The notes: generated from the letters alone by a model not told the origin. Positions 13,944-36,836 are shown, numbered from the stretch's first letter. The stretch: 64,000 bases of DNA from an uncultured Acidobacteriota bacterium (GCA_963770895.1 CAVYRF010000001.1:1216001-1280000); one strand, 5' to 3'. Program-made: numbers and translations.

Positions 13944-13988
13944 GGTTCCTCCTCGCGATCGGCTGGGCGGTAACGGGGCAGCGGCAGC

Positions 13989-14450: not shown

Positions 14451-14836
14451 GGTTTCTCCTTTGTGTTGGGTTCGTCTGACGTGGGTTCAAGCCGGACGGG
14501 CGGCGGCCCGTCGGGGCTCATCCGTTCGGCGGTTTCCTTGATCCTGTCCAGTTGATGCCGCCAGAAGCGCTCGAACTGCCCCGCCCATTCGTGCAGCGGG
14601 CGGATCGCCTCGCCGTTGACCCGGTACAGCATCCGGCGGCCGTCGCGGCGCACGCGCACCAGCCCCACGTCGCGCAGCACCCGCAGGTGCTTGGACACGG
14701 ACGGTTGATCGGTGCCCAGCGCGGCCACGATGTCGCCCACCTGGCGCTCCGACAGCGCCAGGAAGGCCAGGATCTGGCGCCGCCGCGGTTCGGCGACGGC
14801 GTTCCAGGCATCCGAAGTGGTAGCGGCTCGCGGCAT
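14447..14836 (-). CDS. ArsR/SmtB family regulator
   Basis: MPRAATTSDAWNAVAEPRRRQIL, QPSVSKHLRVLRDVGLV..RRDGR. Confidence 0.95.
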   Translation of the reverse strand: MPRAATTSDAWNAVAEPRRRQILAFLALSERQVGDIVAALGTDQPSVSKHLRVLRDVGLVRVRRDGRRMLYRVNGEAIRPLHEWAGQFERFWRHQLDRIKETAERMSPDGPPPVRLEPTSDEPNTKEKP

Positions 14837-14845
14837 GGTCCCCAT

Positions 14846-14871
14846 TATACATGCCTATATGGGAATGTATA
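14846..14871. promoter_or_regulatory. ArsR operator palindrome
   Basis: tatacat-gcctatatggga-atgtata, an AT-rich inverted repeat just upstream of the ArsR start. Confidence 0.75.
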
Positions 14872-14930
14872 GAGGGGGGCGTGCTCCGGGCGCGCCAGGC
14901 GCGCCGCCGGCCTTGCCCTGGCGCGCCGCC

Positions 14931-16433: not shown

Positions 16434-16704
16434 GGTACAGCCCTCCCAAAAACCTTTCGCAACTTGCGAAGACGCGGCACCAGGCGCGGTGGCCCGCATT
16501 CTACGGCACCCGGCCGCTGCCGCTCTCGCCGGCACGGCCGCACCGCGGCCTTCGGCCGCGTCACCCGCCAACCTGGAGTTGCGCTTGCCTGGACCGCCGG
16601 CCGGGCGGCGGGTACACTGCTGCAGGTCAAGCGGGCACAACGGAGCGACGGTGGCGCCGGCGGGGAAGCGCCAGCGCCGGCCGGGCGCGAACGGAAAGGC
16701 GACG

Positions 16705-23204: not shown

Positions 23205-24650
23205 ATGCCGCCACCGGCGCCGCCGCCGCCGCTCACCACCCTCGATCGCTTGCCGGCGCCGCCGCCCGGCCGCGCGGGCTGGCCGTGGACCGAGGCGCCG
23301 CCGCCGCTGCCGCCGCGGCGCGCCGGCGGCTCGCCCTGGCCGCGCATCAGCATCGTCACCTGTTCGCACAACCAAGCCGATTTCCTTGAGGAGACCCTGC
23401 GATCGGTCCTGCTGCAGGGCTATCCGAACCTCGAATACATCGTCATCGACGGCGGCAGCAGCGACCATTCGCTCGCGATCGTCGAGCGCTACGCGCCCTG
23501 GCTCGCCCGCTGGGAGGCGCAGCAGGACCGCGGCCAGGCGGGGGCGCTCAACAGCGGCTTTGAGCATGCCACCGGCGACATCCTCGCCTACCTGAGCTCC
23601 GACGACACCTACCTGCCCGGCGCCCTGGAGCGCGCCGCCCGCGAGGTCGACGAGCGGCGCCATCGCCACCTGGTGGTCGGCCGCTGCCTCTACGTCGACG
23701 CCGCCGGGGCGTCCTTGGGCAACGAGCACCCCAGCCGCGCCGTCAGCCACCGCCGCCTGCTGGCCATCTGGAAGGGGCACAGCGTGCCGCAGCCGGCCGC
23801 CTTCTGGAGTCGCGCCGCCTGGCAGGAGGGCGGCCCGCTGGTCGAAGACGCCGGCATGCGCTGGATCGACTACGGGCTCTTCTGCCGCATCACGCGCCGC
23901 TACCGCCTGCACGCCGTCGATCAGCTCCTGGCCACCTATCGCCTCCATCCCACCTCCATCACCGTCTCCACCGGCCCCGCCGCCGCCCGTCCCCAGATCC
24001 TCCAAGTCAGCCGCTGCTATTGGGGTCCGCCCTGGACGCCGCGCCACCTCCTGCTCGCTGCCTCGCTCGCCGTCCACCGCTGCGATCGCCTGGGCCGCGG
24101 CCGCGCCATCCTCCGCCGCGCCTTGGCCGAGCGCGCCCAGGGCCACAACCCCAGCGCCCGCCGGCTCACCGCGCTGGCGGCCCTGGTCGTCCCCGACGTG
24201 GTGTGCCGGCTGGCGGTCGAGCGCCGCCAGGCCGACGGCCGGCCGCATCCCATCGCGTCCGCGCTCGGCCGCCTGCTGGGCCAGCGCCCCGCCCCGTTCA
24301 GCCATTCGACCGACCCCTGGCCCGACCGCTGGGTCGGCCCTCACCTCCACCTCGACCTGCCGGCCGCTGGAGGCGAGCGACGCCTGCGCATCCTGGGCAC
24401 CGCCGTCCGCTCCTACCTGGGCGCCCCGCTCACCTTGGAAGCACGCATCGACGGCCGCCCCGCCGGCGCCGCGACCATCGAGCGCGAAGGCCCCTTCGCC
24501 GTCGACCTGCCGCTGACCCCCGCCGCCGCGCCAGGCCGCCGCCACGTCGAGATCCAGGCCACCCCCCACTTCATCCCCGACACCATCCTCGGCAACAGCG
24601 ACCAACGCCCCCTCTGCTGGCTGGTCCAATCCGTCACCCTGCAACCCTGA
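23205..24650 (+). CDS. Glycosyltransferase family 2 with a C-terminal beta domain
   Basis: WPRISIVT.S.NQ..FLEET.RSVL.Q.YPNLEYIVIDGGS.D, YLSSDD. Confidence 0.92.
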   Translation: MPPPAPPPPLTTLDRLPAPPPGRAGWPWTEAPPPLPPRRAGGSPWPRISIVTCSHNQADFLEETLRSVLLQGYPNLEYIVIDGGSSDHSLAIVERYAPWLARWEAQQDRGQAGALNSGFEHATGDILAYLSSDDTYLPGALERAAREVDERRHRHLVVGRCLYVDAAGASLGNEHPSRAVSHRRLLAIWKGHSVPQPAAFWSRAAWQEGGPLVEDAGMRWIDYGLFCRITRRYRLHAVDQLLATYRLHPTSITVSTGPAAARPQILQVSRCYWGPPWTPRHLLLAASLAVHRCDRLGRGRAILRRALAERAQGHNPSARRLTALAALVVPDVVCRLAVERRQADGRPHPIASALGRLLGQRPAPFSHSTDPWPDRWVGPHLHLDLPAAGGERRLRILGTAVRSYLGAPLTLEARIDGRPAGAATIEREGPFAVDLPLTPAAAPGRRHVEIQATPHFIPDTILGNSDQRPLCWLVQSVTLQP

Positions 24651-24670
24651 CCCATAGCACGGCTGATCGA

Positions 24671-27139
24671 TCAACGGCTGGGCTCTGGCGCCTCGGTTGG
24701 AGCTTCGGTCTTCTGCAGATCCGGGCCATCGAGCCCCGCCAGGGCCTGCCGAAGCTGTTCCAGGCTCTGTGCCACCTGGTAGCCGAAGCCCTCGTCCTCT
24801 CCCAGCTGAGGAGCGGCGGCGAGGACCGCAGGGACGCTCGTGTCATAGGCGTGCCGGACCAGAGCAGACCACAGCCTCGGCTTTCCCTCCTCGAGATCCT
24901 CGAAGGTCTTCCAGACGCGGGAGAGCTCTTGATGCCAGTATGCCTTGAAGCCCGAGGCAGTGAAGACGCTGTTCTCCAGATAATCCACCAGAGCTCGGAG
25001 ATCTTCCTGAATCTCGGCCAGGATTGATGCGAAATCGGCGGCTGGGCCGGACGGGCGGGCCAAGTCCTCCCTCGGTTGTGGTGCAGGCTCAGGTTCCGGC
25101 GTGGCGGGCTTCGAGGTCCCCGGCACCTCGATCTTTCGAAAGGTCACGCCCGAGAAAGCCGGCGGTGACGCATGCCTCGATGCGCTCCCGGCTTCGCTCG
25201 CAGAGAGCGGTGGTGGCGGGGGCGCGCTGAGAGGGCGCCAGCTACCATAGTCCAGGAAATGTTCCAGATCCTTGTGGGCGGGATCGACACCCTCGTAGAA
25301 CTCCGCCAAAGCTTTGATGTCCGGCGCCCTTTCCTTGAGGCTGACCCGCCGGTCCGGAACTCCCCGCGGAGCTGTCAAGAAGATCTCGGCTGCAGGCCGG
25401 GCAAAGCGGAGGAATAGAGTTGAAACGCCATGCTCGATGCGAGGCTCGATCGGGCCAAGATCCTTGTCAAGCGCTTCTTCGATGCCCTTGATGCCCCAGA
25501 GAAGCTCTACCATTTTGCTCGTCAGCTCGCCGATGGACCGGTTGAGGTCCGCGGCCAGGTCCCGGCCGATGCCGTCGATGTGCTTCACGGCCTCCTGGTG
25601 GACCACCTTCCTGATCGCGATGTGAGCCGAGACGGGCAGGAATCTGCCATCGCCCGTGCGTCCATGGACCTTGTAGAGCTCCTGAATCTTATCTGGTGAC
25701 GCAGATGGCAGAGCTGCTTCAAAGCCGTGGACGAGGTCCCGGTAGCGGCCACGGAATCTCGTCAGCTCCGGGTTGTCGGACGGTTCCGCATCGACTTCTC
25801 GTCCGACCTTGGGCATTACTTTAGAATCGTAAAAGTCGCCCAGGTCCTTGCGGATTCTCGTCCACTCCTGGGTCCACCAGGCGTTGAAGGCGATCTCGAA
25901 CCGGCGGTCTCCGTCTTCCTGATAGTTGCCAGAAAATTCGGGGAACCTCTCTTCGAGTTGGTTGACCAGGTCACGGGCGACCCGGCGAAGGTCCGCCAGA
26001 ATCCTGTCACAGCGGCGGGCGAGAAGACTGGAGCGTTCGCCGTCGATATATGCCTGCACAGCGCGCTTGAGCTCGTCTATCCCATCGCCGACGCCGAGCT
26101 GGGCGAGGCGGGCCACGATGTTGGGCCCGTAGCGCATCACCTCTTCGCGTCCGGCGCCATTGCGGAAGAGGAGCGCGGGAGGGCAGACAGGCAGGACGCG
26201 GTCCGGTGGTATCCCTCGCCACTCGCGCCGGGCGCTTTCGAGAAGCTCGCGGAAATGCTGAACATCTTCGGCGGTGTCGATGCGCGTCAACACCACAAAA
26301 GTCTTACCTGCGGCCTTGACCGCCGGATCCTCGATGTCCGCAAAGCGGAGCATGCGCACCTCGGTCCCTTCGCGGTTGGGAGAGCGGAAGTCCTTGGCAT
26401 AGAGGATGGCGTCGCACTCAGCAATCTTCTGCTGCGCTTGTTGCTTGTGCATTTCAAGGGGAGAATTGAATCCAGGTACGTCATGAAAAACCAGGTCGCG
26501 GGCGGCGCGCAGCGCCGTTGTGCGCAGAATGATGCGCCGCACGGCCCGTGCATAGGCGGGATCCGTGATGACCCGCGTGAGATCCTGGCGGATCTCCCGG
26601 ATATCCAGAAACGATCGCTTTTCGGGAGAACGGCCCAGGAGAGGGCGGATCTGCGCTTCCAGCCCCCTGGTTTCTTCAAGGTCATTGTCCAGGTCTCGGA
26701 AGTCCTGCCCCTCCTGGCGTTGCGCAGCGGCGAGAGATGCATGAGCCTTGCGCTTCTGGTCGAGCTCCTCGGCAAACTCCTCGGGTGTGCGATATTCGAT
26801 TTCATAGCTCTGATCCCGCTCGCTGGGAGCGGACCAGATCTCGGTCGGAGTATAGGTGCACCGCTCATCCCGCGATGGGAGGATCTCGGCACCCAACCAG
26901 GCATTGATGAGAGCGCTTTTCCCGGCCTTTTCGAGACCGAGGACCGCCACATGGAACTGATTGTCGCGGAGCTTCTTGAGCTGACGGGCCAGCTGGGGCG
27001 CCAATTGGTCAAGCTTCTGACCGATCTTGGCCGTCAGGTTGGCAGCCTGCTGGCTCTGCAGGTCCCGCGCACGGGAGAGTACCGCATCCGCAAGCTGCAT
27101 CCTTGTCAGGTAGTGAGCACGGAAGGTTTCCCAACTCAT
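24671..27139 (-). CDS. Dynamin-like GTPase
   Basis: G1 GLEKAGKS, G2 RCTYT, G3 DVPG, G4 TRID; N-terminal helix and long helical stalk; RBS ggaga before ATG 27139. Confidence 0.9.
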   Translation of the reverse strand: MSWETFRAHYLTRMQLADAVLSRARDLQSQQAANLTAKIGQKLDQLAPQLARQLKKLRDNQFHVAVLGLEKAGKSALINAWLGAEILPSRDERCTYTPTEIWSAPSERDQSYEIEYRTPEEFAEELDQKRKAHASLAAAQRQEGQDFRDLDNDLEETRGLEAQIRPLLGRSPEKRSFLDIREIRQDLTRVITDPAYARAVRRIILRTTALRAARDLVFHDVPGFNSPLEMHKQQAQQKIAECDAILYAKDFRSPNREGTEVRMLRFADIEDPAVKAAGKTFVVLTRIDTAEDVQHFRELLESARREWRGIPPDRVLPVCPPALLFRNGAGREEVMRYGPNIVARLAQLGVGDGIDELKRAVQAYIDGERSSLLARRCDRILADLRRVARDLVNQLEERFPEFSGNYQEDGDRRFEIAFNAWWTQEWTRIRKDLGDFYDSKVMPKVGREVDAEPSDNPELTRFRGRYRDLVHGFEAALPSASPDKIQELYKVHGRTGDGRFLPVSAHIAIRKVVHQEAVKHIDGIGRDLAADLNRSIGELTSKMVELLWGIKGIEEALDKDLGPIEPRIEHGVSTLFLRFARPAAEIFLTAPRGVPDRRVSLKERAPDIKALAEFYEGVDPAHKDLEHFLDYGSWRPLSAPPPPPLSASEAGSASRHASPPAFSGVTFRKIEVPGTSKPATPEPEPAPQPREDLARPSGPAADFASILAEIQEDLRALVDYLENSVFTASGFKAYWHQELSRVWKTFEDLEEGKPRLWSALVRHAYDTSVPAVLAAAPQLGEDEGFGYQVAQSLEQLRQALAGLDGPDLQKTEAPTEAPEPSR

Positions 27140-27156
27140 CGTTTGTTCTCCGCTTC

Positions 27157-28365
27157 TCAGGATTTCAACAGGATGAGGAGTATGACAATGGCAGCCAGGA
27201 CAAGGAACGTCCACACCAACACCGTGAAGCCGGAAGGTCCGGCCCCAACCCGCGGCTGCGCAGGAGCGACCGGTGACAGAGCCGGTGGTGGATGCAGGGG
27301 CGCTGGGGTTGTCCTTGTCGCAGCTCCAGTCTTTGGAGTAGGCGGCGGTGGCGCCGGCTTCAGGCTCCTGATGTGGCTACGGACCAGATTCCAGGAATCT
27401 GCGGCAGGAATCCTGGCTACGAGATCGCCAAGCGAGGCCCGTAACAGACCAATGGGCGGACAGGTCGCAAGCGAGGCCGAGCGCCACGTCTGACGAAATA
27501 CGTCCCAAAAGGTCGGTGCGAAGCCGCGCAGCCATCTCTCGGCCTCCCGGAAGCGCTCGCCTGCTTCCTGGGAACCATGGTCGTCGCCAAAGAACCCGCT
27601 CTCTCCCGTCATTGCAGCGAGGGGAGGGTTGGCCAGAAGGAGGATTTCCGCCGCGAGGATCGCTGCGGCGTAGCGATCTCCTTCCCTGCAGGCGACGCGA
27701 TTGTCTCTCGGGTGTGTATAACCGGGAGTGCCGCGGCTGTCTCCAGGCGGTGTTCCCGGAAAGTACACGTCCTCCAGATCGATGACTTGGATTTTGCGAG
27801 CCGCGAGCTCGATGACGACGTTGCCTCCGGCGATGTCGGTATGAGTGGCGCAGAGACCTTCGATTGAGCAGACCACGTCGAGAAAATGTGCGCATAGATG
27901 GATCGCCGCGGGGGCCTCGAGGTGCTTCCCCTCGGTCGCAGCTTCTAGAATCTCATTCCAGGTTTGTCCCCCGATCCAGGGCATGAGCATCGCGTAGCTC
28001 AGCTGGTCCCAGAGCCTTGTGGCTGGATCGGAGGGCAGGATCACACGACGGTTGGCTGCCCGCAGGCCGTCGAGCTGGTAGAGCGGCTCCAGACGGCGTG
28101 CAATGTGCGCGAGCTCGGGCGACCGGCACCCAGGCCGGAAGACCTTGAGCGCCCAGTCCTGGCCAGTCAGGCTCCGCAGCTTGTAGATCGTCGCCCGGCC
28201 GCCGACGTCGCTCGCGTGCACCATCCTGAATGTGCCCCTCTCGAAGCTGCGGAAGAAAAAGGATTCGCCGAACAGCGCGATCTCCTGATCCGGTTGGGGC
28301 TTGAACACTGTCGCGGCGGTTGCGTCAGGGCTGTCCCTGGCGAATGTCGATCTTGTAGAATCCAC
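27157..28365 (-). CDS. Ser/Thr kinase-like protein with a C-terminal TM anchor
   Basis: GGRATIYKL, WALKVF (catalytic Lys), HTDIAGGN (HxDxxxxN), IDLED, GTPGY; Pro-rich linker; terminal TM FTVLVWTFLVLAAIVILLILL. Confidence 0.88.
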   Translation of the reverse strand: MDSTRSTFARDSPDATAATVFKPQPDQEIALFGESFFFRSFERGTFRMVHASDVGGRATIYKLRSLTGQDWALKVFRPGCRSPELAHIARRLEPLYQLDGLRAANRRVILPSDPATRLWDQLSYAMLMPWIGGQTWNEILEAATEGKHLEAPAAIHLCAHFLDVVCSIEGLCATHTDIAGGNVVIELAARKIQVIDLEDVYFPGTPPGDSRGTPGYTHPRDNRVACREGDRYAAAILAAEILLLANPPLAAMTGESGFFGDDHGSQEAGERFREAERWLRGFAPTFWDVFRQTWRSASLATCPPIGLLRASLGDLVARIPAADSWNLVRSHIRSLKPAPPPPTPKTGAATRTTPAPLHPPPALSPVAPAQPRVGAGPSGFTVLVWTFLVLAAIVILLILLKS

Positions 28366-29704
28366 GATTCTCCCCAGGTCCCGGGTAATTCCGGCTGCGA
28401 CCGCGGAACGTGTAGGTCTGCTTCGTTAGGACGGAGCCATCTTGGCTGAGCGCTCGGATCTCCATTTCGAGAGCATCGATCTTTTGGATAGTCGGGAAGT
28501 CGTTCCCCGGCGTCCAACGCGCGATTGGTTTCTCCTTCGCCCAGATCTCGACCGCGGAGACCTCTGCTGGAGCCTCGATCCGAAGAACGACCTCTCCCCC
28601 GAGGGCACTTTTGCCGGACTGGTCGAGCGGCTCGGCAGCAATGAGCCACTCTGGTGTGCGTTTCGCAGGGGTGACCTCGCGAGGTGCACGGTCCAGCAGT
28701 TCGGCGGCTCCGAGATGTATGTTCAAGCCGGGCTCGGGCCCCTGCCGCGGGGGCTCAGAGAGGAGAGCCGTCATGATCCTCGCTCCCGCGAGCAGCCCCA
28801 CAACCAGGGCCGCAGCGGTCCATAACGGCCAGTACGCCTGGCGGCGTGGCGGTGAAGCGTCGCTCTTGATGATGCGTCGCGGCGGATCCGGGGGTAAAGG
28901 AGGTTCGATCACGGGCTGGGCATGGGCCGCAACCGCGACGAAGCAGAGATCGTCGTCGCTCGCCTTTTCCTCAGCGACCCGCTCGAAGCCTTGCGGAGAC
29001 AAATTCCAATCCTCCCCGAGGCCATCTGAATGGATGACGCATCTCGTGACGTTTCGCAAGATCCGGCTTTCGAGGAGGAGAGGGGCTTCGCCGGTGCTGG
29101 ACCAGCGCCCCCGGGAGGACCCCGTAACGCCGCTCCAATGTCCATCTGCCAGGGCGATCCAGGCTTGGACGTCGCCAACCAGGTATAGGTGCAGGGTGCC
29201 TTCCACCCTGCCGAGGACAAACGCGCCGAACACCGTCTGCGAGCCATCGAGCCGCGCCTTTTTGACGGCGCCTTGGACCAGGGGAGGAAGGTCCGCCCCC
29301 GTTGGTATCGCCAGGACAAGACGCTGGATCTCTGGCGTCCAGCTCAGGAGAGTTGCTGTAAGCCGCTCCTCGCTAGGAGGAGTGGAACGCAGGTCCCAGA
29401 GGTGCTCGAGCAAGCGTTCGGACACTTCACGCGCTGCCAGCTCGCCATGGAACGATTGGCTCACTCCGTCGGCGGCGATGCCCACCACATGGACACCATC
29501 GGTGCGCAGCACCGCGAAATCCTGACCGGACGTACCCTGGGCATCGTGCTCCCGGCATTTCCTGTACCCGAGGTCTACCTCCAAGCCATGGTTCTTGAAG
29601 TCCCGATGCTTGTGCTGGACCTCCGTCGAGGAGGGGTCTGCGCGAAGATCCAGGGAGTGGGTCTCGTGGGCGGCCCTTCCCTCGCCGGAGATCTTGGGGA
29701 TCAT
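28325..29704 (-). CDS. PP2C-like phosphatase with TM helix and extracytoplasmic C-terminal domain
   Basis: GQDF, ADGVSQS, VGD, HSDGL and DDD metal motifs; TM LWTAAALVVGLLAGA; ATGA overlap with the vWA gene. Confidence 0.85.
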   Translation of the reverse strand: MIPKISGEGRAAHETHSLDLRADPSSTEVQHKHRDFKNHGLEVDLGYRKCREHDAQGTSGQDFAVLRTDGVHVVGIAADGVSQSFHGELAAREVSERLLEHLWDLRSTPPSEERLTATLLSWTPEIQRLVLAIPTGADLPPLVQGAVKKARLDGSQTVFGAFVLGRVEGTLHLYLVGDVQAWIALADGHWSGVTGSSRGRWSSTGEAPLLLESRILRNVTRCVIHSDGLGEDWNLSPQGFERVAEEKASDDDLCFVAVAAHAQPVIEPPLPPDPPRRIIKSDASPPRRQAYWPLWTAAALVVGLLAGARIMTALLSEPPRQGPEPGLNIHLGAAELLDRAPREVTPAKRTPEWLIAAEPLDQSGKSALGGEVVLRIEAPAEVSAVEIWAKEKPIARWTPGNDFPTIQKIDALEMEIRALSQDGSVLTKQTYTFRGRSRNYPGPGENRGFYKIDIRQGQP

Positions 29705-30456
29705 CGCCGCACCTGGTCTGTTGCCTTCGACATGACGAATCCGAGCTCGACCAGCTCCGGCCGGGTTCCCGGAATCAACATCCGATTGCCGGCGGCGAAT
29801 CGGTAGCCCTGGGTCGCCAGGACTTCGGCATAACTCGGCGGCAGAGGGGAGGACATCCGGAAGAGCTTCTGTGCATGGGGGTCTTTGAGCTCCGAAAGGC
29901 TCCCCACTCCGGGCCACCCCTTGACGTCACGAATCAAGGTTTGAGTGAGGTCTGCCCCGAGATAGACGTTTTCGACGAGGACGTTCCCGTCGGAAGTGGA
30001 GATGCCCATGATCTCCCGGACCATGGGCTCGGGATCGGCTGTGCTGTGCTCGCCGTCGGTCAGGTGGCAGACCAGAGGAGCTGGGCGCCCTGCCAGCCTC
30101 GGCATCTCGCGGACCAGGAGATCCCGCGCCACGGCGAAGGCCTCGTATGTCGAGGTCGCCTCGTTCGCGGTGAACTCCGGGATTCCGATATCCACCACCT
30201 GCTGGAGGAGACGGGGACCGCCGAAGATATCGACGACTTTGTCGCTGTACGAGAAAAGAGCGACCTCGTAGCGTGACAGAATCTGTTCGCCTACCAGGGA
30301 GCGCTGGATCATCCTTTCGAAAACCTGTCGAAGGGCTTGATTCACATGCGCGATCTTCGACGCTCCGTCCAGCAGGTCGGTCATCGAACCGCTGACGTCG
30401 ATGAGGTAGATGATGAGTGCGGGGGTCTGCCTGGTTGCCTTGATACCGTAGGGCAT
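29701..30456 (-). CDS. vWA domain protein (TerY/YegL-like)
   Basis: MIDAS motif IDVSGSM (DxSxS), T in ATST, HLTDG; RBS aggaggt before ATG 30456. Confidence 0.9.
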   Translation of the reverse strand: MPYGIKATRQTPALIIYLIDVSGSMTDLLDGASKIAHVNQALRQVFERMIQRSLVGEQILSRYEVALFSYSDKVVDIFGGPRLLQQVVDIGIPEFTANEATSTYEAFAVARDLLVREMPRLAGRPAPLVCHLTDGEHSTADPEPMVREIMGISTSDGNVLVENVYLGADLTQTLIRDVKGWPGVGSLSELKDPHAQKLFRMSSPLPPSYAEVLATQGYRFAAGNRMLIPGTRPELVELGFVMSKATDQVRR

Positions 30457-30710
30457 CGGGATCTCACCTCCTAGCCCACAGAAACCACTTCCTCCCTTCT
30501 TGTTTAGACGGCTGGCAACGAACCCTTGCCTGTCCTCAGCCGGGCTGGGTCGGACGTCGATGCGCGGTCGTGTTGGCGCGCTACACCGCGGACGCGACAC
30601 CGCAAATGCCAACCGTGCAGTCAGCTCCGCAGGCGCCAGGCCTCGCCTACTGGCTGGCGCAACAGCCGCATGGCTGTCGCCGCTTCCGGCAGATCTGGCA
30701 GTGGCGTTAA

Positions 30711-32213
30711 CTCTACTTTGTCAGATTTCGGAAGCGCTTGATTCCAAGGCGGTTAGCTCTTAGAATTGGGCTGGAAAGTATGATTTCTCGCCGAGACCAG
30801 ATGCTTCCCCCCCTCAAAGGACCATAGTCGGAAGGAGAGACGCTATGCCCCAGCTCCCCTGCAAGAGCTGGGAGCGCGATTCCTGGCCTTTCAGCGGGGA
30901 TTTGCGCTTCTTTTCCGCCTGCGGACCCGAGACGTGAACTTGCAAGCACGGGCGTATCTGAGCGGTTTGTTGCAGGCCGCAAAGCGCAACGTCCAGCGGA
31001 TGGCAGAGGTGGTGCCCGGCACCGAGGCTCAGGCACTGCACCACTTTCTCGCTCATTCGCCCTGGGATGCGCGAGCCGTCATGGATCAAGTGGCGAAAGA
31101 GGTCGGCGGGCTGTTGGGCGGAGATCAGGACACCTGCCTGCTGCTCGACGAGACCTGCTTTGCGAAGAAAGGCGTTCGGTCGGTGGGCGTAGCTCGGCAG
31201 TGGTTCGGCTTGCAGGGCAAGACGGATAACTGCCAGGTGGCGGTCTTCGCCGCCTTGGCGCGAGGCAAGCGGGTCAGCCTGATCGATGCGGAGCTGTACC
31301 TGCCGCGGGAGTGGGTCGAGGATCCAATGCGATGTGCCGCGGCGGGTGTGCCGGTTGAGCGCCGCGTGATGAAGACGAAGCCAGCGTTGGCTCTGGATCT
31401 GGTTCGACGAGCACGACGCAACGGAGTGCACTTCGCCTGGGTGGCGGCGGATGGGACGTATGGTCAGGATCGCGCTCTGCTGCGCGCCCTCGACGACGCC
31501 GATGAGACGTTTGTCATCGATGTTCACCGGGACCAACGGGTCTTTCTTGACAACCCGCGTCGGGCCAAACGACGTCGGGCGACACCGGAGTCTCGCGCTG
31601 AAGACTTGCGTGTGGACGAATGGGTTGCTCGCCAACCGGCCGCAGCATGGCAAGAAGTATGGGTCCGGCGCGGGACCCAAGGGGAGCTTCGTGTGCAAGC
31701 CCTGCGTTGCCGCGTCTGGGTGCGCGAAGCCACAGAGACCCAAGCCCGCTGTTGGCAGTTGATCGTGACGCGCGAGATCGGTGCGCCCGACACCACCAAG
31801 TACAGCTTCAGCAATGCCGCCGAGCAGACCTCTTTGCAACGGTTGGCTTATATGCAGCGGCAGCGCTACTGGGTCGAACGTGCCTTCCAGGAAGCCAAGA
31901 ACGAGGCCGGCATGGACGAATACCAGGCGCGAAGCTGGCAAGCTTGGTATCACCACATGGCCCTCGTCATGATGGCGCTGCTTTTCATTCTGAAAGAAAA
32001 GCAGTTGCAGAGCGAGGCTCTTCCTCTCCTGAGTGCTGCCGACGTGAAACATCTGCTCGTTCGGCTCTTACCCCGGCGGGACCTCGACATCGAGGAGTCG
32101 ATCCGTCAGGTGCAGAGCCGGCACCGCCAACGTCAAGCCGCTATCGACTCTGCTTCTCGCCGACAGCAAGAATCCAGGGCCTCTACCTCGTCGACGAATC
32201 TGACAAAGTAGAG
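30711..32213 (+). mobile_element. IS701-family insertion sequence
   Basis: 17-bp perfect TIRs ctctactttgtcagatt (30711-30727) and aatctgacaaagtagag (32197-32213); TTAA on both sides (30707-30710, 32214-32217). Confidence 0.93.
30934..32211 (+). CDS. IS701-family DDE transposase (frame open from about 30784)
   Basis: LDETCFAKKG..SVGVARQW.G..GK.DNCQV, ADGTYG, RYWVERAFQEAK...GMD.YQARSW..W.HH. Confidence 0.95.
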   Translation: MNLQARAYLSGLLQAAKRNVQRMAEVVPGTEAQALHHFLAHSPWDARAVMDQVAKEVGGLLGGDQDTCLLLDETCFAKKGVRSVGVARQWFGLQGKTDNCQVAVFAALARGKRVSLIDAELYLPREWVEDPMRCAAAGVPVERRVMKTKPALALDLVRRARRNGVHFAWVAADGTYGQDRALLRALDDADETFVIDVHRDQRVFLDNPRRAKRRRATPESRAEDLRVDEWVARQPAAAWQEVWVRRGTQGELRVQALRCRVWVREATETQARCWQLIVTREIGAPDTTKYSFSNAAEQTSLQRLAYMQRQRYWVERAFQEAKNEAGMDEYQARSWQAWYHHMALVMMALLFILKEKQLQSEALPLLSAADVKHLLVRLLPRRDLDIEESIRQVQSRHRQRQAAIDSASRRQQESRASTSSTNLTK

Positions 32214-32217
32214 TTAA

Positions 32218-33070
32218 GCAGAGGTCCAGCAGAGCCGCATCGATCGTGCCTCTGCCGTTGGAAAGGTCCAACATTCCGCGGTAGGCGCTCAGCGCCTCTT
32301 CGATCTGGCCGGACGCGAGCTGCGCGAGTGCGAGACTCCGCCAAGCCATCACCAGGCGTGGTGTTTTTGTCAAGAGGCCCTACGCGATGCTAATTCCACG
32401 CTGGAGGTAGGCAAGGGCAGCGGTTTGCGGTGGAACATGGGCGTTACCTTTCCGGCGCCTCCGGCCCCAGGACGAGCGCGATGGCCCTGGTCAGCCGTTG
32501 CCATTTGCTGGTCTCGACGACCAGCTGTGTCCGGCCGGCGGCGGTCAAGGCGTAGAAGCGCGCCTTGCGGTTGCTGTCGGAGGTGCCCCAGCGGGCGGAG
32601 ATCCAACCTCTCTCCTCTTCAAACGCTGCCAGCGCCGCCTGCGGCTCGCCCAAGCCAGCGTACGCACCCCCCAGCTGCGTCAGGTTCGCCAGCATCGCTG
32701 CCGGGTCTTCGCGCTCCCGGTCGATGGCCAATGCCGCGCGCAGTTCGCTCAACGCCTCGGCCGCGCTGCCTAGGGATAGCTTGCATTGCGCGATGCCCCT
32801 GCGTCAGATCGCCTCCTCCCGCCGCAGCTTCTGCCGCTGCGCCATGTTGATTGCATCCACAAAATAAACGCACGGCTTCCGCCGGCTGACCCTGGTCCTG
32901 ATAGGTGCCTGCAATGCTGCCGAGGGCGACGGCTTCATCCCGAGAGTTGTGGGGGCGGTGCGCCTTCTCAAGTGCGCTCCGGAAGCTCCATCGCTTCGTC
33001 CAGCTCCCCGGCTGCCCTGTGGGCCAGGCCGAGGTTGCTGATATTGTCTTGGCTCGCAGATCAAGTGGAC
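32218..33070 (-). pseudogene. Fragmented TPR-protein remnants with an embedded 3' half of padR
   Basis: TPR-like pieces [24 protein letters not shown] and WRSLALAQLASGQIEEALSAY; the frame continues across IS701 to a stop at 30621; padR copy at about 32425-32620. Confidence 0.65.
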
Positions 33071-33163
33071 CCGGGAGGTCGGATTTTGTGAGACTCCAGT
33101 CCGCCGGCCGTCAGGCCGGGCAGGCCTCGGGTAGGAGCTGCCCTGCCTGGAGCCTTTTCGCCA

Positions 33164-33490
33164 TTACTTTTTCAAGATGTCCGTCTTTTCTTTGACCCGA
33201 GCCAGTTCCCGCTGCAACCGGCGAAACTGCTCCTCATCCGATTTCAGGTTCCCCTTCCCCGGAAACGCCTCAACCGGGTCTTGCTCCAGCTGGCGCATCC
33301 AGCGGCGGAGCATCTCAGGCCGGACGTCGAGATCCCGAGCGGCAGTTGCCATCCCTCGCTCCCCAGACGCCACCAACCGACCGCCTCTAACTTGAACTCC
33401 CGACTGAATTTCCGTCTCGTCTTTGCCATCGCGCACCCTCTCGCCCGTTATGCGGGTTTTCGAGGTGTCCGCTAATCCGGGGCAAGGCCA
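33164..33490 (-). mobile_element. IS3-family remnant (left end plus frameshifted orfA)
   Basis: TG-starting end tggccttgccccggattagcggacac; MAKTRRKFSREFKLEAV then a frameshift into AARDLDV...LRRW..RLQRELARVKEKTDILKK; orfB absent. Confidence 0.85.
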
Positions 33491-33583
33491 CCCATACCTG
33501 ATCCCCGTTCCTTACGGTCCTACACAAAGCCGTCCGCGCCGTGTCTTACCGGTTGAGCCGCGGGCCGTGCCGCAGGGGGAACG

Positions 33584-34951
33584 ATGAACCAGCGCTATGT
33601 GGACTTTTCCTTGGGGATCGAGGGTGCGGATGGAGGCGGTTATCGGGTGCGAGGGTTTTCTCCCGACGCAGAAGCCGAAGGTGTCACCCGGCTCGACTTC
33701 GACCTGGATGCGCTGAGCCGCAGGCTGCGGTCCAGGGTGTCGTCGAGCGATCGGCCCCCATCGCAGGCGCTTGACGTTGCCCATGCAGCCGGCGCCCCGG
33801 CGCCAGGAAGGGAGCTGGCGGAGATTGGCAGCGGGCTGTTCGACGCACTGTTGCCCGGCGAAGTGCGGGATCTGTACGGCACGGCCTGGAGTGGCGCCAG
33901 GGCGGCGGGCCGCGGTCTGCGCATCCGCCTGCATCTGCGCCCGCGCACGCCCGAGCTTGCGTGGCTGACGAAGATTCCGTGGGAAGTCCTCTACGACGAA
34001 AGGGCCGGCAGTTTTCCGTGCCTCAACCCGCTAAGTCCGCTGGTTCGCCATCTCGACCTGCCGCGGGCCGCGGATCGGGCGCCGTTGCAGCTGCCGCTGC
34101 GGGTGCTGGTGGTGGCGGCGAATCCCGCCGGCACGGCCGAGCTCGACCTGGAGGGCGAGCTGGAATCGCTCCAGGCATTACCGCAGGTCCGCGCCAAGGT
34201 GCTGGAGGGTGCGGGTCCCGAAGACCTGCGGCTGGAGCTCCTGCGCGGCGGCTACCAGGTCGTTCACTTCATGGGTCACGGCTTGAGCGATGCGTCCCAG
34301 GGAAGTCTGGTCTTCGCGACTCCGGCGGGGCGCGCGCGGCCGGTCACCGGCAGCGCCCTGTCGCAGCTGTTCCAGGGAGCTCCCGCCCTCGCGTTCACGC
34401 TGCTCAACGCCTGTCACTCCGCCGCCGTGCCGAAGGGCAGCTCCGAACGCTCCGCGGCGGACCCGCTCGCGGGAGTTGCCGGCGCGCTGGTGCGCGGCGG
34501 CCAGGCGGCTGTCGTCGGCATGCAGCTGGCGATCCGGGATCGCGCGGCGCTGGTCTTCAGCAAAGTCCTCTATGCGCAGCTCGCCGACGGCAAGCCCATC
34601 GAGGCTGCCGTCGCCGAAGCCCGGCTGGCGCTCTACCTGCGCGATACGAGCGTCAGCGATTGGGTCGCGCCGGTGCTTTTCCTGCGCGGCGCGGACCGGC
34701 GCGTCGAGGAGTCAGCGGGAAACGATCAGCAGCCGGGCCAGGGCGAAAGGGACCGCATCTGGACAACTTACAGATCCGACCAGATCGAAGGCGGAGAACT
34801 CGTGTTTCGGGGAGCGTTCGACGCCGGAACATCGCCGGATCGATCCAGGACCAGACCCCGCGATGTCCACGCGCTCGTGGAGACCAGGACAACGAAGGTC
34901 GACAAACTGATCATCACCGGCTCCGAACAGCAGGACCGCCGCGAGGACTGA
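33584..34951 (+). CDS. CHAT domain (caspase-like) protease
   Basis: IPWEVL, LRVLVVAANP, catalytic His VHFMGHG, catalytic Cys LLNACHS, VVGMQ..I.D, W..PVLF. Confidence 0.93.
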   Translation: MNQRYVDFSLGIEGADGGGYRVRGFSPDAEAEGVTRLDFDLDALSRRLRSRVSSSDRPPSQALDVAHAAGAPAPGRELAEIGSGLFDALLPGEVRDLYGTAWSGARAAGRGLRIRLHLRPRTPELAWLTKIPWEVLYDERAGSFPCLNPLSPLVRHLDLPRAADRAPLQLPLRVLVVAANPAGTAELDLEGELESLQALPQVRAKVLEGAGPEDLRLELLRGGYQVVHFMGHGLSDASQGSLVFATPAGRARPVTGSALSQLFQGAPALAFTLLNACHSAAVPKGSSERSAADPLAGVAGALVRGGQAAVVGMQLAIRDRAALVFSKVLYAQLADGKPIEAAVAEARLALYLRDTSVSDWVAPVLFLRGADRRVEESAGNDQQPGQGERDRIWTTYRSDQIEGGELVFRGAFDAGTSPDRSRTRPRDVHALVETRTTKVDKLIITGSEQQDRRED

Positions 34952-34952
34952 G

Positions 34953-36155
34953 ATGGCCGCGGCCCTGTGGCATGGCATCTGGTCCGACAACTCGCCGGCG
35001 GGCAAGTTGATCGTTCTGATCATTCTGGCGCTCCTGGCGTGGGCGTTGCGTTGCGGTTCCCGGCATCTCAAGCGGTACCGGCGCGAAGAGGACAACCTTT
35101 CGCGTGCGATCGCAAAGCTCCGGGAGACCACGGTGCGGCGGGTGCCGGCTGCGGATGCAAACCCGCAGCCAGGCGAAGCGATCGCGGACCAGGGCGCCGC
35201 CGGCGGCGCTGCCGGCGAAGGCAATGTGTCGCCCGCCGACCTCGCCGTCGTGCGGTCGGACCTGGCTGCGGAAAGCCTGATCGCCGAGCGCCTGGCGGCG
35301 ATCGAAAAGCTCCGCACCCGCCAGGTGCGAGTCAATCCCAACGCGCTCCAGCAGCTCAGCCTGGCGCGCGACCAGGCGCGGCCTGGCATGGCCGTGCCCG
35401 GAGCCGTCGCGGGGCTGGCGACGATGCTCGGTCTGCTCGGTACGTTCATCGGCCTGGCGGTCATGGTGCAGCAGATTCAGTTCGCCCTGCCGCAGAGCTC
35501 CGGCGCCGTCACGGCCAGCTCCTGGACGCAGTCGGTCGACAACATCTCCCGCATCCTGGGCGGTATCAAGACCGCCTTTTCGTGCTCCCTCGTGGGCATC
35601 GTCTGTTCGATCCTCGCCGCGGTGACCAACTTCCGTCTGCGGTCGGCCCAGGGCCTGTTCTTCGAGCGCCTGGAGCGCTTCACCACCGAGGAGCTGCTGC
35701 CCGCGGCGGTTCCCACGGTGGAAGACGAAAGCCTGCTGGACCGTGTTTCGTTGCAGCTGGAAAACTCGTTCGCCCGTCTTGACGACATCTACCGGCAGAA
35801 CCAGGACGCCTTGCAGGACATGACCGGCGCCCAGCGCGCCTTTGTCGACATCGTGGAGGAGATCCGCAAGATCACCCGCAGCGAAGCGTCCAGAAACCTG
35901 GAAGGGGTCCTCGAGCAGGTGTCCCAGACCAACCGTTCGGTGCTGACGGTGGCGGAACAGCTGCCGAAGGTCGTCAGCGCGATGGAAACGGGACAAAGGC
36001 GCCTGCTGGACCGGTTTTCCACCCTGGTTGCGAACGTTGCGTCCCTGTCCACCGTGCCACCGCCGCCGTCGCCGGGCCGGACGCAGTGGACGTGGCCCTC
36101 CGTCGTGGCGCTGGTCGTGGCCGGCATCCTGCTGCTGCTCTTCGTCCGCCGGTGA
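34953..36155 (+). CDS. MotA/TolQ/ExbB-family (ZorA-like) membrane protein
   Basis: N-terminal TM; TMLGLLGTFIGL and IKTAFSCSLVGI channel helices; helical tail; extra C-terminal TM. Confidence 0.85.
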   Translation: MAAALWHGIWSDNSPAGKLIVLIILALLAWALRCGSRHLKRYRREEDNLSRAIAKLRETTVRRVPAADANPQPGEAIADQGAAGGAAGEGNVSPADLAVVRSDLAAESLIAERLAAIEKLRTRQVRVNPNALQQLSLARDQARPGMAVPGAVAGLATMLGLLGTFIGLAVMVQQIQFALPQSSGAVTASSWTQSVDNISRILGGIKTAFSCSLVGIVCSILAAVTNFRLRSAQGLFFERLERFTTEELLPAAVPTVEDESLLDRVSLQLENSFARLDDIYRQNQDALQDMTGAQRAFVDIVEEIRKITRSEASRNLEGVLEQVSQTNRSVLTVAEQLPKVVSAMETGQRRLLDRFSTLVANVASLSTVPPPPSPGRTQWTWPSVVALVVAGILLLLFVRR

Positions 36156-36164
36156 GGTGTCGGC

Positions 36165-36836
36165 TTGGATCTGCAACAGCGGCGCTCGACGGTCGAAAGA
36201 CCCAGCATGCCGGTGCCGTGGCCGGCGATGCTCGACCTCATCACGTCCACCCTGATGGTGTTCATGCTCGTCACCACTCTCGGCACGGTGTTTGCCAGCG
36301 ACGACATGGAAGCGGCGCTGATGCGCGCCAGGCAGGCGAAGTTCCTGGAGGATTTTCAGCAGGAGTTCGCGGCCGAGATCGGCCGCAACGAGATCCGCGT
36401 CGAACGTCACCTCGACTTCGTGCAGATCCTCTTCAGCGACGGCGTGTTATTCCGCCTGGGCGACCACCACCTGGAGGCCGCGGGGCAGCGCCTGGTGGCC
36501 CGCTGCGCCCGCGTCTTCGCCCAGGCGGGAGCCAGCGGTTACGAGCAGATCCAGGTGGAAGGGCACACCGACAGCGTGCCGCTCGACCGCCCCTCCTATC
36601 CTTCCAACAATTGGGAGCTCTCGACGGCCCGCGCGCTCAGCGTCGTCGAATTTCTCGGCCGCGAGCAGCCCGCGTTCGCCGCGGTGCTCTCCGCGAACGG
36701 ATATGCCTCGAATCGACCGGTGGCGAGCAATCTCACGCAGGCCGGCCGCGATCTCAATCGGCGGATCGAAATCCGCCTGTTCTTTTCCGGCCCGCACCCG
36801 AGCGGGCGGCAATCCCATGCGGAGAGCCCGCGGTGA
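36165..36836 (+). CDS. MotB/OmpA-family (ZorB-like) protein
   Basis: TM WPAMLDLITSTLMVFML with the conserved Asp; peptidoglycan-binding motifs VEGHTD, NWELS.ARA..V, GY...P, NRRIEI. Confidence 0.92.
   Translation: MDLQQRRSTVERPSMPVPWPAMLDLITSTLMVFMLVTTLGTVFASDDMEAALMRARQAKFLEDFQQEFAAEIGRNEIRVERHLDFVQILFSDGVLFRLGDHHLEAAGQRLVARCARVFAQAGASGYEQIQVEGHTDSVPLDRPSYPSNNWELSTARALSVVEFLGREQPAFAAVLSANGYASNRPVASNLTQAGRDLNRRIEIRLFFSGPHPSGRQSHAESPR

Follow-up and report, generated by a model that had tools for sequence, protein, structure and literature searches.

Operon organisation

The window, a 64,000-nucleotide stretch of the genome of an uncultured Acidobacteriota bacterium (GCA_963770895.1 CAVYRF010000001.1:1216001-1280000), carries four closely packed genes on the minus strand, running from position 30456 to 24671 and called as vWA, PP2C, kinase and dynamin (Table 1). 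The start of the PP2C gene overlaps the vWA stop codon (ATGA) and the dynamin ATG, preceded by GGAG, follows the kinase stop codon by 17 nt. The start of the kinase gene can be placed at either of two GTG codons. The one at 28365 is preceded by GGGGAG and gives a 41-nt overlap with the PP2C gene, the one at 28308 leaves a 16-nt gap; alignment of homologues requires a start upstream of ATG 28224. The ATG of the vWA gene is preceded by GGAGG. All four ORFs are full length and the catalytic motifs of all four proteins are intact. A reading of the window made from the sequence alone had described a coupled four-gene operon with intact motifs and a dynamin 17 nt after the kinase; both descriptions hold, the spacing exactly, with every gene on the minus strand at the expected position.

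No terminator-like site was found inside the operon on the minus strand, in a scan that returned fewer promoter and terminator sites than shuffled sequence, none of them on the minus strand, and that is uninformative. A consensus scan of the minus strand of the leader found no sigma-70-like site, which is not evidence of absence. None of the four proteins reached the cut-off of an NCBIfam family, and Rfam gave no match over 24000-34000.

Table 1. Features of the operon and its upstream region (window coordinates).
Feature	Position	Strand	Remarks
TerY-like vWA protein, 251 aa, cytoplasmic	29701..30456	-	Pfam, PADLOC, complete MIDAS motif
PP2C (PPM) phosphatase, 459 aa	28325..29704	-	Catalytic domain 18-260, Pro-rich linker, TM helix, C-terminal beta-sandwich
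PP2C TM helix, residues 294-315	28760..28825	-	AF2 helix and hydropathy
PP2C C-terminal beta-sandwich, residues 353-456	28337..28648	-	AF2; probably extracytoplasmic
Divergent ePK-like Ser/Thr kinase, 402 aa, tail-anchored	27157..28365	-	GTG 28365; alternative GTG 28308
Kinase C-terminal TM anchor, residues 382-400, followed by two residues	27166..27222	-	Kyte-Doolittle 3.25
BDLP-type dynamin-like GTPase, 822 aa, without TM segment	24671..27139	-	Dynamin_N, fold, G motifs
Dynamin Ser/Thr/Pro-rich disordered linker, residues 640-693	25061..25222	-	pLDDT below 50; candidate phospho-acceptor region
250-nt leader upstream of vWA gene	30457..30706	-	Former upstream DNA now separated by IS
IS, DDE_5 transposase 30934-32211	30707..32217	+	Context, outside the system; inserted at TTAA

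The four proteins

The vWA protein matches Pfam VWA_2 (27.7 bits, cut-off 27; 4.3e-6) and the PADLOC TerY model (1.5e-23). Its MIDAS residues D20, S22, S24, T101 and D134 (DxSxS...T...D) are invariant in all 32 aligned homologues, and hydropathy gives no TM-like segment.

The phosphatase matches Pfam PP2C_2 (28.3 bits, cut-off 24; 1.5e-6), and its metal-binding Asp motifs (D62, D79-G80, D227-G228, D251-D252) are invariant in 31 sequences. The AF2 model (mean pLDDT 83.8) has the PPM fold and is matched by Foldseek to RsbX (3w40, 2.3e-8), Stp1 and PPM1B. The modelled TM helix coincides with a hydrophobic peak at 297-315 (Kyte-Doolittle 2.03), and a hydrophobic segment occupies the same place in 6/6 aligned PP2C homologues. 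Beyond it lies the beta-sandwich, modelled with seven strands at a pLDDT of about 71-90 in 10-residue blocks. Only one homologue, P0115, aligns over this domain, and an Atlas search with the tail gave leads to Ig-like beta-sandwich families, all below 0.9. Five Arg/Lys residues stand just before the TM helix, which by the positive-inside rule would place the catalytic domain in the cytoplasm and the beta-sandwich outside. No PADLOC family was found for the PP2C protein at E<=0.01, nor for its homologues P0115 and P0116 at E<=0.001.

The kinase is divergent. The protein itself reaches no Pfam cut-off (APH 19.2 against 23.2), whereas 14/18 members of its family match PF00069 and the family profile matches 157 PDB kinases at E<=0.01. 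Residues K74, H175-T176-D177, N182 and D196-L197-E198 are invariant in 18 sequences. PADLOC matches are to MkoA (1.3e-7) and, over residues 128-203 in the kinase core, to STK_OB (8.2e-4). The C-terminus consists of a Pro-rich linker and the TM helix, with neither an OB fold nor a zinc ribbon. A C-terminal TM helix is present in 14/19 close kinase homologues.

Thus the TM helices claimed for phosphatase and kinase by the sequence-only reading were recovered by hydropathy (and, for PP2C, by AF2), and the extracytoplasmic domain of the phosphatase it proposed has a counterpart in the modelled beta-sandwich tail, on the side predicted by the positive-inside rule. Membrane anchoring, which it also described, is real but not special to this locus, since it recurs across the kinase and PP2C families.

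The dynamin matches Pfam Dynamin_N (7.7e-15), and its G1-G4 motifs (P-loop, switch-I Thr, DVPG, T-x-x-D) are invariant in 35 sequences. The AF2 model (mean pLDDT 83.7) consists of a large GTPase domain followed by a helical neck and trunk. Foldseek matches it to BDLP (2j69, 5.6e-13), SynDLP, IniA, DLP1/2, mitofusin and LeoA (7.4e-7), with a probability of 1.00 for BDLP, SynDLP, IniA and mitofusin. No hydrophobic segment exceeds Kyte-Doolittle 1.5 and the tip loops of the model are polar, an amphipathic surface being outside the reach of these tools; a weak hydrophobic segment occurs in 3/70 family members. Between the invariant residues G632 and D713 the three dynamins linked to triads (see below) have 79-84 residues with 13-17 Ser/Thr; the nearest unlinked dynamins have 41-42 residues with 1-4 Ser/Thr. 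Long Ser/Thr-bearing linkers are also present in other, unlinked members of the family.

Genomic setting

The operon is a horizontally acquired four-gene module. It lies in an island with a GC content of 0.60-0.67, against 0.70-0.78 in the left flanking host DNA (GC3 0.71-0.74 against 0.85-0.92). A cluster of CHAT, ZorA-like and ZorB-like genes lies next door, and the cassette adjoins GT2 glycosyltransferase genes. The CHAT protein of the window shares 28% identity over 135 residues with the CHAT protein found after a triad in genome G028; this similarity is generic, and a recurrent link between triads and CHAT at this locus was dropped.

Upstream, the operon is bordered by an IS whose transposase matches DDE_5 (2.5e-50) and whose ends are perfect 21-nt terminal inverted repeats. 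To judge from its four full-length, near-identical copies in the genome (96.9-100% identity), the element is active. Beyond it lie fragments of genes, one resembling IS3 OrfA and one resembling PadR. A joint free of the IS (30705->32213) is present in contigs of four soil runs out of four, from two studies (DNA runs, the kind not being given for X5), so the insertion is recent and polymorphic.

The genome has a second triad, on contig C2, among GT1/GT4 glycosyltransferases, an asparagine synthase, a methyltransferase and an ATP sulfurylase/APS kinase. The remaining Dynamin_N matches of the genome are also on contig C2. The possibility that the cassette is a duplicate of this second triad was rejected; the C2 kinases lie elsewhere in the kinase tree.

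Distribution and co-inheritance

The triad is a widespread family with variable genes behind it. In other loci it is followed by WD40-TIR, CHAT and TPR, WXG100/YukD/FtsK-SpoIIIE (EccC), ribonuclease genes or unknowns; such different output genes from locus to locus support the view of it as a portable sensor or regulator, not an effector. Among 81 other kinase-family loci (79 metagenomic loci plus L189 and L190, about 636 kb), none matches either dynamin profile, even at E<=1. Conversely, no vWA, PP2C or kinase relative was found in the 80 dynamin-family loci from reference genomes, 54 of which have at least 5 kb upstream. In 75 of these 80 there is no second dynamin or mid protein nearby either, and the two annotated Methylococcales loci lie among housekeeping genes.

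A neighbourhood search, proposed with the sequence-only reading, shows adjacency to be rare, which is half of what that reading named as its refutation. Against this stands a small clade, three instances strong and with congruent trees, in which the linkage has been kept. The best dynamin, kinase and PP2C homologues share two metagenomic contigs of 20337 and 10786 bases, a co-residence that rests on matching contig sizes in bases, gene order not being part of the evidence. Identities are 64% (P0002) and 53% (P0003) for the dynamin and 51% (P0096) and 41% (P0097) for the kinase; the best PP2C homologues are P0115 (43%, full length) and P0116. A word-based search with PP2C gave one relative, and the remaining PP2C homologues come from an exhaustive representative search. 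The three triad-linked dynamins form a clade (SH-aLRT 100) next to P0004, a member of a tandem-dynamin cassette. Kinases P0094-P0097 also form a clade (SH-aLRT 100), and their branching order matches that of the dynamins, P0095 aside, for which no dynamin is known.

Both families are patchy among relatives. No full-length dynamin relative was found in 60 related genomes, and strong kinase-family matches are confined to G000 and G028 of 61 genomes (2/401 across the phylum). Viral contigs contain no relative of either family; plasmids gave no dynamin match and one weak kinase match (24% identity). The low-GC island, the IS elements, the CHAT-ZorAB-like neighbour and this patchy distribution point to a mobile, defence-type function, not to housekeeping.

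Proposed function and alternatives

We propose that the module is a membrane-proximal phosphorylation switch of the TerY-P kind whose output would be a soluble dynamin-like GTPase. Between them, kinase and PP2C would control whether a target at the inner membrane face is phosphorylated; the likeliest phospho-targets are the vWA protein, the disordered dynamin linker of 80 residues rich in Ser, Thr and Pro, or both. MIDAS-dependent binding would next recruit or release the dynamin at the membrane, where GTP-driven assembly may seal or remodel membrane disturbed by phages or by some other damage to the envelope. The outward domain of PP2C would be the likeliest input. A complex prediction for the vWA protein with dynamin residues 1-636 and 700-808 scored 0.01 (mark 0.32), which is no evidence either way. 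We have middling confidence that a membrane phosphorylation switch recruits or activates the dynamin here, within a mobile defence-type island.

A different use of the same parts would be an envelope-stress or surface-maintenance circuit, not an anti-phage one, in which the ectodomain of PP2C monitors the state of the cell wall or of exopolysaccharide, the kinase and PP2C signal, and the dynamin repairs or shapes membrane, much as stress-induced bacterial dynamins do. Membrane repair has been attributed to IniA. It is described for B. subtilis DynA in the preprint 10.1101/2022.05.11.491447. Both triads of the genome adjoin glycosyltransferase genes (GT2 here, GT1/GT4 on C2), as a part in envelope biogenesis would also allow, but this neighbourhood is weak evidence because surface-polysaccharide loci are themselves variable regions. 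The atypical composition and patchy spread of the families (dynamin in 0/60 relatives, kinase family in 2/401 phylum genomes) speak against such a circuit, as do the ZorAB-like cluster next door and the modules that follow sister triads (TIR, CHAT, ribonuclease, WXG100), which are typical of conflict systems. We regard it as unlikely.

The operon could also consist of two independent systems, a membrane TerY-P-like triad complete in itself and a lone dynamin, that met in a defence or variable island, with at most a common transcript and no regulation between them. Defence genes do cluster without functional coupling, and this island holds a CHAT-ZorAB-like cluster and IS debris. All 81 other triad loci lack the dynamin and all 80 other dynamin loci lack the triad, 75 of them having no tandem partner nearby and the two annotated Methylococcales ones sitting among housekeeping genes. 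However, the 17-nt same-strand spacing, with no terminator-like site, argues for coupling. PP2C, kinase and dynamin co-reside on two more contigs at 41-64% identity and in congruent, supported clades, which is unexpected of chance neighbours. Furthermore, the nearest relatives of the dynamin work with dynamin-1 and a mid protein, and here these partners are missing and the triad occupies their place. On this evidence mutual independence is improbable.

It is very unlikely that the operon is silent or decaying cargo, a relic of intact sequence with no current function, whose expression was lost when the IS separated its promoter. The active IS does end 250 nt before the start of the vWA gene, so that in this genome the promoter may have been lost to the operon; gene fragments (IS3 OrfA-like, PadR-like) lie beyond it and the remaining leader has no sigma-70-like site on the minus strand. 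On the other hand, none of the four ORFs is truncated and no catalytic motif is damaged, the IS-free allele in contigs of all four runs shows a recent, polymorphic insertion, and the promoter types that this organism uses lie outside the consensus scan.

The membrane switch acting on a dynamin remains our preferred reading. As a more tentative and on balance doubtful extension of it, this may be the first bacterial dynamin with dedicated Ser/Thr phosphorylation control, the anchored kinase and PP2C together with a MIDAS-vWA adaptor replacing the second dynamin and tether protein. If so, phosphorylation, and not a partner dynamin, would time the recruitment of a soluble dynamin to the membrane, a prokaryotic counterpart of the control that phosphorylation exerts on eukaryotic dynamin and Drp1. 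TerY-P-type triads would then serve generally as sensor-switches whose effectors can be exchanged (dynamin, TIR, CHAT protease, type VII secretion). To our knowledge, neither mechanism nor effector has been established for TerY-P, an experimentally supported anti-phage system, and we know of no trigger for the defence dynamins of bacteria (Eleos, DynA). The pairing at operon level offers a TerY-P-like switch its candidate effector and, conversely, a bacterial dynamin its candidate regulator. Because only three instances were found, it is of limited general importance unless further pairs of triad and effector follow the same principle.

Comparison with known systems

A vWA, PP2C, kinase and dynamin combination is not described in the literature searched, although the text, neighbourhood figures and supplements of Anantharaman et al. 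2012 may contain triads linked to a dynamin. The statement in the sequence-only reading that this is no named system stands to that extent, with one qualification: a GTPase beside such a triad has a published precedent (PMC7159879), discussed below.

The closest parallel to the triad is TerY-P, delineated by Anantharaman, Iyer & Aravind 2012 and shown to be anti-phage by Gao et al. 2020 (as cited in PMC4978471 and PMC11090510). As those accounts have it, adjacent genes in accessory islands encode a TerY-like MIDAS vWA protein, a PP2C and a Ser/Thr kinase, and varied effector modules accompany them, including the WXG100/FtsK type that we observe in sister loci. The operon has the domains that define TerY-P: a MIDAS vWA, a PP2C with catalytic Asp and a kinase with its catalytic residues. 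It differs from the published descriptions in that the kinase ends in a Pro-rich linker and TM helix, where the Gao type has an OB fold and the CoCoNuT-linked type a zinc ribbon, the PP2C is single-pass with a probably outward beta-sandwich and has no PADLOC model, and a dynamin is the fourth gene. Two features of TerY-P in PADLOC, a C-terminal OB fold on the kinase and a phosphatase matching the model of the system, are absent here. As only TerY matches these models well, the operon is TerY-P-like and not a TerY-P member in the PADLOC sense. The label given by the sequence-only reading is thus apt for the domain triad and its TerY match, not for the missing OB fold or zinc ribbon and the unmatched phosphatase.

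In Deinococcus radiodurans, DRA0331-0334 is a vWA / STPK / FHA / PP2C operon that has been studied experimentally as a push-pull switch (bioRxiv 10.64898/2026.01.23.701218). It likewise joins a vWA protein to an antagonistic kinase and PP2C in one operon, but it has FHA docking domains and ties to DNA-damage kinases, and its abstract mentions neither membrane anchors nor a dynamin.

Eleos, or LeoABC, is an anti-phage operon that, according to the Millman et al. 2022 preprint (10.1101/2022.05.11.491447), needs two consecutive dynamins. It shares with the operon a dynamin-like GTPase with an intact P-loop and a defence-island setting. The window dynamin matches the PADLOC models LeoA (2e-12) and LeoBC (1.4e-8) weakly, over partial profiles at 32-45 bits, and the operon has one dynamin, not the two that the preprint describes.

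The published precedent for a GTPase with such a triad, albeit of a different GTPase type, is the actinobacterial GAP1-N2 theme, in which GTPase systems are linked to a TM- or zinc-ribbon-fused kinase, a PP2C and a standalone vWA (Kaur et al. 2020, PMC7159879). The shared theme is a membrane-proximal, GTPase-centred system with an active TM-fused kinase, an adjacent active PP2C and a standalone vWA. The GTPase described there has N-terminal zinc ribbons and is accompanied by a GAP1 protein and FNIII-repeat components, whereas our operon comprises four genes, apparently with no GAP1, zinc-ribbon or FNIII gene among them, and its GTPase has the BDLP fold. Pfam gave no GAP1-type family on the four genes or the scanned neighbours, with a Pfam copy that may lack GAP1 models. 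Nowhere in its main text does PMC7159879 use the word dynamin.

For the dynamin itself, the nearest comparison is with the tandem-dynamin cassettes L001-L005, ordered dynamin-1, a ~270-310-aa protein and dynamin-2; of these, L001, L002 and L004 match Leo models weakly. Over its full length the window dynamin is 36-43% identical to dynamin-2 of L001, L002 and L004, and in the tree it clusters with P0004 of L001. The window has neither a dynamin-1 nor a middle protein (no match to either in the stretch 14001-41000), and vWA, PP2C and kinase genes stand upstream instead. We conclude that the dynamin descends from the dynamin-2 of such cassettes, its partners lost and the triad in their place.

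Cassette architecture and components

The window cassette comprises four tightly packed genes with intact motifs, as the sequence-only reading had described; coordinates, junctions and invariant catalytic residues all agree with that description, and the ATG of the dynamin gene was read at the spacing claimed behind the kinase. ATG 28224 as the kinase start is ruled out by a conserved N-terminal segment (F21, P23) in the homologue alignment. A terminator scan saw no terminator-like sites on the minus strand. The dynamin gene is convergent with a GT2 glycosyltransferase gene, with 20 nt between the stops.

Coordinates of features in the window, the source genome (contigs C1-C3) and homologous loci (L numbers); bare coordinates are positions in the window or in the named locus
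Feature	Location	Strand	Details
Cassette	30456-24671	-	four genes
vWA start	ATG 30456	-	GGAGG precedes
vWA/PP2C junction		-	ATGA overlap
PP2C/kinase junction	GTG 28365 or GTG 28308	-	41-nt overlap from GTG 28365 (GGGGAG precedes), or 16-nt gap from GTG 28308
Kinase/dynamin junction		-	kinase stop, 17 nt, dynamin ATG; GGAG precedes
IS, 1.5 kb	30707-32217		DDE_5 transposase, perfect 21-nt inverted repeats ending in TTAA
Other full-length IS copies	C1:1463380-1464890; C2:3332569-3334078; C2:5518429-5519936
Gene debris past IS	32444-32752; 33164-33436	-	TPR/PadR-like fragment; IS3 OrfA-like transposase fragment
CHAT + ZorAB-like cluster	33584-36836	+	CHAT protease gene, then ZorA-like, ZorB-like genes
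Second triad of the genome (L190)	C2:3016000-3035999, locus 10003-14760	-	vWA-kinase-PP2C-kinase, without dynamin
Metagenomic contig	20337 bases		dynamin P0002 (64%); kinase P0096 (51%); PP2C P0115 (43%, full length including tail)
Metagenomic contig	10786 bases		dynamin P0003 (53%); kinase P0097 (41%); PP2C P0116
Tandem-dynamin cassettes	L001 6311-12283; L002 5857-12295; L004 2256-8150		upstream dynamin 870-919 aa, mid protein, window-related dynamin
After triad	L086 2349-3716		WD40-TIR protein
After triad	L189 (genome G028) 12129-16889		CHAT, then TPR proteins
After triad	L102, L111, L146		WXG100
After triad	L098		YukD + FtsK/SpoIIIE
After triad	L136		FtsK/SpoIIIE
After triad	L127 11903-12976		protein with C-terminal ribonuclease domain
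After triad	L117		another kinase
After triad	remaining loci of the 27		unrelated genes or Pfam-less proteins

The vWA protein lies barely over the Pfam VWA_2 cut-off, matches PADLOC TerY (1.5e-23) and carries a full MIDAS set that is invariant in 32/32 homologues; hydropathy found no hydrophobic segment in it. PP2C exceeds the cut-off of Pfam PP2C_2, and its four Asp-bearing PPM motifs are invariant (n=31 sequences). Its AF2 model (mean pLDDT 83.8) consists of a PPM domain (18-260), a helix (294-315) and a seven-stranded beta-sandwich (353-456), with RsbX, Stp1 and PPM1B as top Foldseek matches. Five Arg/Lys lie directly N-terminal to the helix and by the positive-inside rule would place the catalytic domain in the cytoplasm and the sandwich outside. 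The extracytoplasmic phosphatase domain claimed earlier corresponds to a modelled fold whose outward side is predicted. Only P0115, at 43% identity, aligns with the PP2C tail among 1.84 billion representatives.

The window kinase scores below every Pfam cut-off (APH 19.2 vs 23.2). The family to which it belongs is kinase-like: 14/18 members match PF00069, at E<=0.01 the family profile recovers 157 kinase sequences of the PDB, HTDIxxxN pairing with HRDLAARN, and K74, HTD175-177, N182 and DLE196-198 are invariant in the homologue alignment. The kinase ends in a Pro-rich linker, a TM helix (382-400) and two further residues. Hydropathy, together with the AF2 helix in PP2C, upholds the TM helices attributed to phosphatase and kinase.

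The dynamin matches Pfam Dynamin_N (7.7e-15), and its G1 motif, switch-I Thr, DVPG and T-x-x-D are invariant (n=35 sequences). Foldseek matches of its AF2 model (mean pLDDT 83.7; residues 640-693 disordered) are BDLP (5.6e-13), SynDLP, IniA, a Campylobacter DLP pair, mitofusins and LeoA. Hydropathy found no hydrophobic segment. A further open frame of 1363 aa in the genome (C2:4147016-4147444, minus strand) also bears Dynamin_N (48 and 36 bits).

Genomic setting

The source genome (8.16 Mb, three contigs) has a GC content of 70.8% and the window is likewise high-GC. Between about 24.65 and 33.5 kb GC dips to 0.60-0.67. The left flank has 0.70-0.78; on the right flank GC climbs more gradually, to about 0.68-0.70. 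Third-position GC is 0.71-0.74 in the cassette genes, compared with 0.85-0.92 in flanking host genes.

The vWA gene lies 250 nt downstream of an IS that has four full-length copies in the genome (96.9-100% identity); C2 and C3 also bear fragments of it. Contigs from four soil-metagenome runs in two studies carry the IS-free joint from 30705 to 32213. Since this empty site co-exists, the IS insertion is recent and polymorphic, the element is currently active, and it lies outside the system. The soil-run contigs show many differences within 33083-33456. A look-up of sequencing runs containing the stretch returned no RNA run. In the cluster beyond, the CHAT protease gene matches PF12770 (2.2e-23) and PADLOC SAVED_CHAT (1.3e-7), the ZorA-like gene is MotA/ExbB-like (ZorA models about 1e-8) and the ZorB-like gene is OmpA/MotB-like (ZorB1 2.8e-22). 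In this cluster a caspase-like protease, in place of ZorC/D/E, leads a Zorya-like ZorAB pair.

Triads of the kinase family

Searching metagenomes with the kinase alignment gave 352 relatives, whose best 80 matches represent 79 distinct loci. By the queries used, vWA, PP2C and kinase occur together in 27 of these 79, and many others are too short to judge; gene orders are vWA-PP2C-kinase, vWA-kinase-PP2C-kinase, or longer. Membrane anchoring is not special to the window cassette. A C-terminal TM is present in 14/19 close kinase homologues, a hydrophobic segment lies at the matching place in 6/6 aligned PP2C homologues, and a crude hydropathy screen of 81 loci detected a TM past the catalytic domain in 21/90 complete kinase ORFs and 14/39 PP2C ORFs.

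Distribution is patchy. Strong kinase-family matches occur in G028 alone among 60 related genomes; in a phylum-wide sample of another 400 genomes, with four candidates scored per genome, G093 alone has a match at E<=1e-30. The source genome itself holds another triad built from these families (L190), flanked by GT1/GT4 glycosyltransferases, asparagine synthase, a methyltransferase, ATP sulfurylase/APS kinase and an inositol-monophosphatase-like gene; one of the glycosyltransferases matches the 'GT4-conflict' Pfam family (1.7e-12).

Following genes were surveyed in 27 loci whose sequence runs on for about 2.2 kb or more past the last cassette gene, by Pfam on 39 co-directional ORFs of 73 listed. 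None of these 39 is a dynamin. The WXG100, YukD and FtsK/SpoIIIE genes found after sister triads are type VII secretion-like. The variety of following genes suggests that the outputs of kinase-family triads are exchangeable.

Linkage of dynamin and triad

The sequence-only reading had named rare adjacency of dynamin and triad in other genomes as one ground against it; linkage is indeed mostly lacking elsewhere, and a small clade retains it. In the 81 further loci of the kinase family, which total about 636 kb, neither of two dynamin profiles matched an ORF, not even at E<=1. A dynamin scan of one genome per species (185,579 species) gave 147 relatives, with a top identity of 43% to the window dynamin; vWA, PP2C or kinase relatives accompany 0/80 of the best 80 loci kept, 54 of which have at least 5 kb upstream. 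On the other side, the best homologues of dynamin, kinase and PP2C lie on metagenomic contigs of 20337 and 10786 bases. Exact base counts agree three times over, for which chance is not credible, so both contigs carry dynamin, kinase and PP2C genes; the claim is one of co-residence of these three only.

The three triad-linked dynamins form a clade in the tree (SH-aLRT 100) that adjoins P0005 and also P0004, the downstream dynamin (dynamin-2) of the L001 tandem cassette (SH-aLRT 94). Kinases P0094-P0097 likewise form a clade (SH-aLRT 100), with the same branching order as the dynamins once P0095 (2304-base contig, no known dynamin) is left out. The matching clades imply that the association arose once: a dynamin-2 parted from dynamin-1 and the mid protein and became joined to a triad. 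The association has outlasted divergence to 41-53% identity, which argues for selection acting on the combination. Instances number three, plus the fourth clade kinase on its 2.3-kb contig.

Among the best 80 of 147 dynamin loci, five (L001-L005) carry another, different dynamin (dynamin-1) on the upstream side. Between the two dynamins of L001-L004 lies a protein of ~270-310 aa; it has no Pfam family above cut-off, and 2/3 full-length examples have a hydrophobic segment. L002 also contains a HEPN gene within the cassette and a MoxR AAA_3 gene after it. The other 75 loci, mostly Methylococcales, gave no match to dynamin-1 or mid-protein profiles. The Methylococcales dynamins among L006-L080 occur as one conserved gene, which in the two annotated loci has housekeeping neighbours, uvrB and clpB (L040) or Rrf2 and a class-V aminotransferase (L007); in this order the dynamin seems to belong to the core genes and not to the accessory ones. 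The 60 related genomes hold no full-length dynamin relative, with five weak matches (20-30 bits, <=117 residues). Neither family was found in IMG/VR; PLSDB yielded a single weak match for the kinase (24% identity) and none for the dynamin.

Discussion

We propose that kinase and PP2C oppose each other on the inner side of the membrane, with the outward sandwich of PP2C as the likeliest input and the MIDAS-vWA protein as a metal-dependent adaptor. Since the dynamin carries no membrane segment and its usual partners are gone, it may be recruited or activated through this switch. A candidate phospho-acceptor is the linker that joins invariant G632 to D713: in the three triad-linked dynamins it spans 79-84 residues, 13-17 of them Ser/Thr, compared with 41-42 residues and 1-4 Ser/Thr in the nearest unlinked dynamins, and long linkers are present elsewhere in the family too. 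The trigger may be phage attack or general envelope damage. The proximity of both triads of the genome to glycosyltransferase genes is compatible with an envelope role. A defence function is favoured by the mobile, patchy, island-borne character of the system and by the conflict-type genes that follow sister triads.

The sequence-only reading did not recognise the combination as a named system, and a full-text literature search likewise turned up no paper describing an operon of vWA, PP2C, kinase and dynamin; its scope excludes Anantharaman et al. 2012 and Gao et al. 2020 and their supplements, where one may be described. The cassette is not Eleos, having a single dynamin and weak partial matches; the tandem-dynamin cassettes also match Eleos models weakly. 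The nearest published idea is the actinobacterial GAP1-N2 theme of Kaur et al. 2020 (PMC7159879), where a zinc-ribbon GTPase system is linked to PP2C, a standalone vWA and a kinase fused to TM helices or a zinc ribbon. Its GTPase differs from the dynamin here, and the word dynamin is absent from the main text of that paper. At the domain level the window cassette is a TerY-P-type triad; among PADLOC TerY-P models TerY alone matches, the kinase is without an OB fold and PP2C matches none. The sister loci agree with the WXG100/FtsK link that PMC4978471 and PMC11090510 report for TerY-P on the authority of Anantharaman et al. 2012. This rare yet coherent cassette offers a candidate effector for a TerY-P-like switch and a candidate regulator for a bacterial dynamin.
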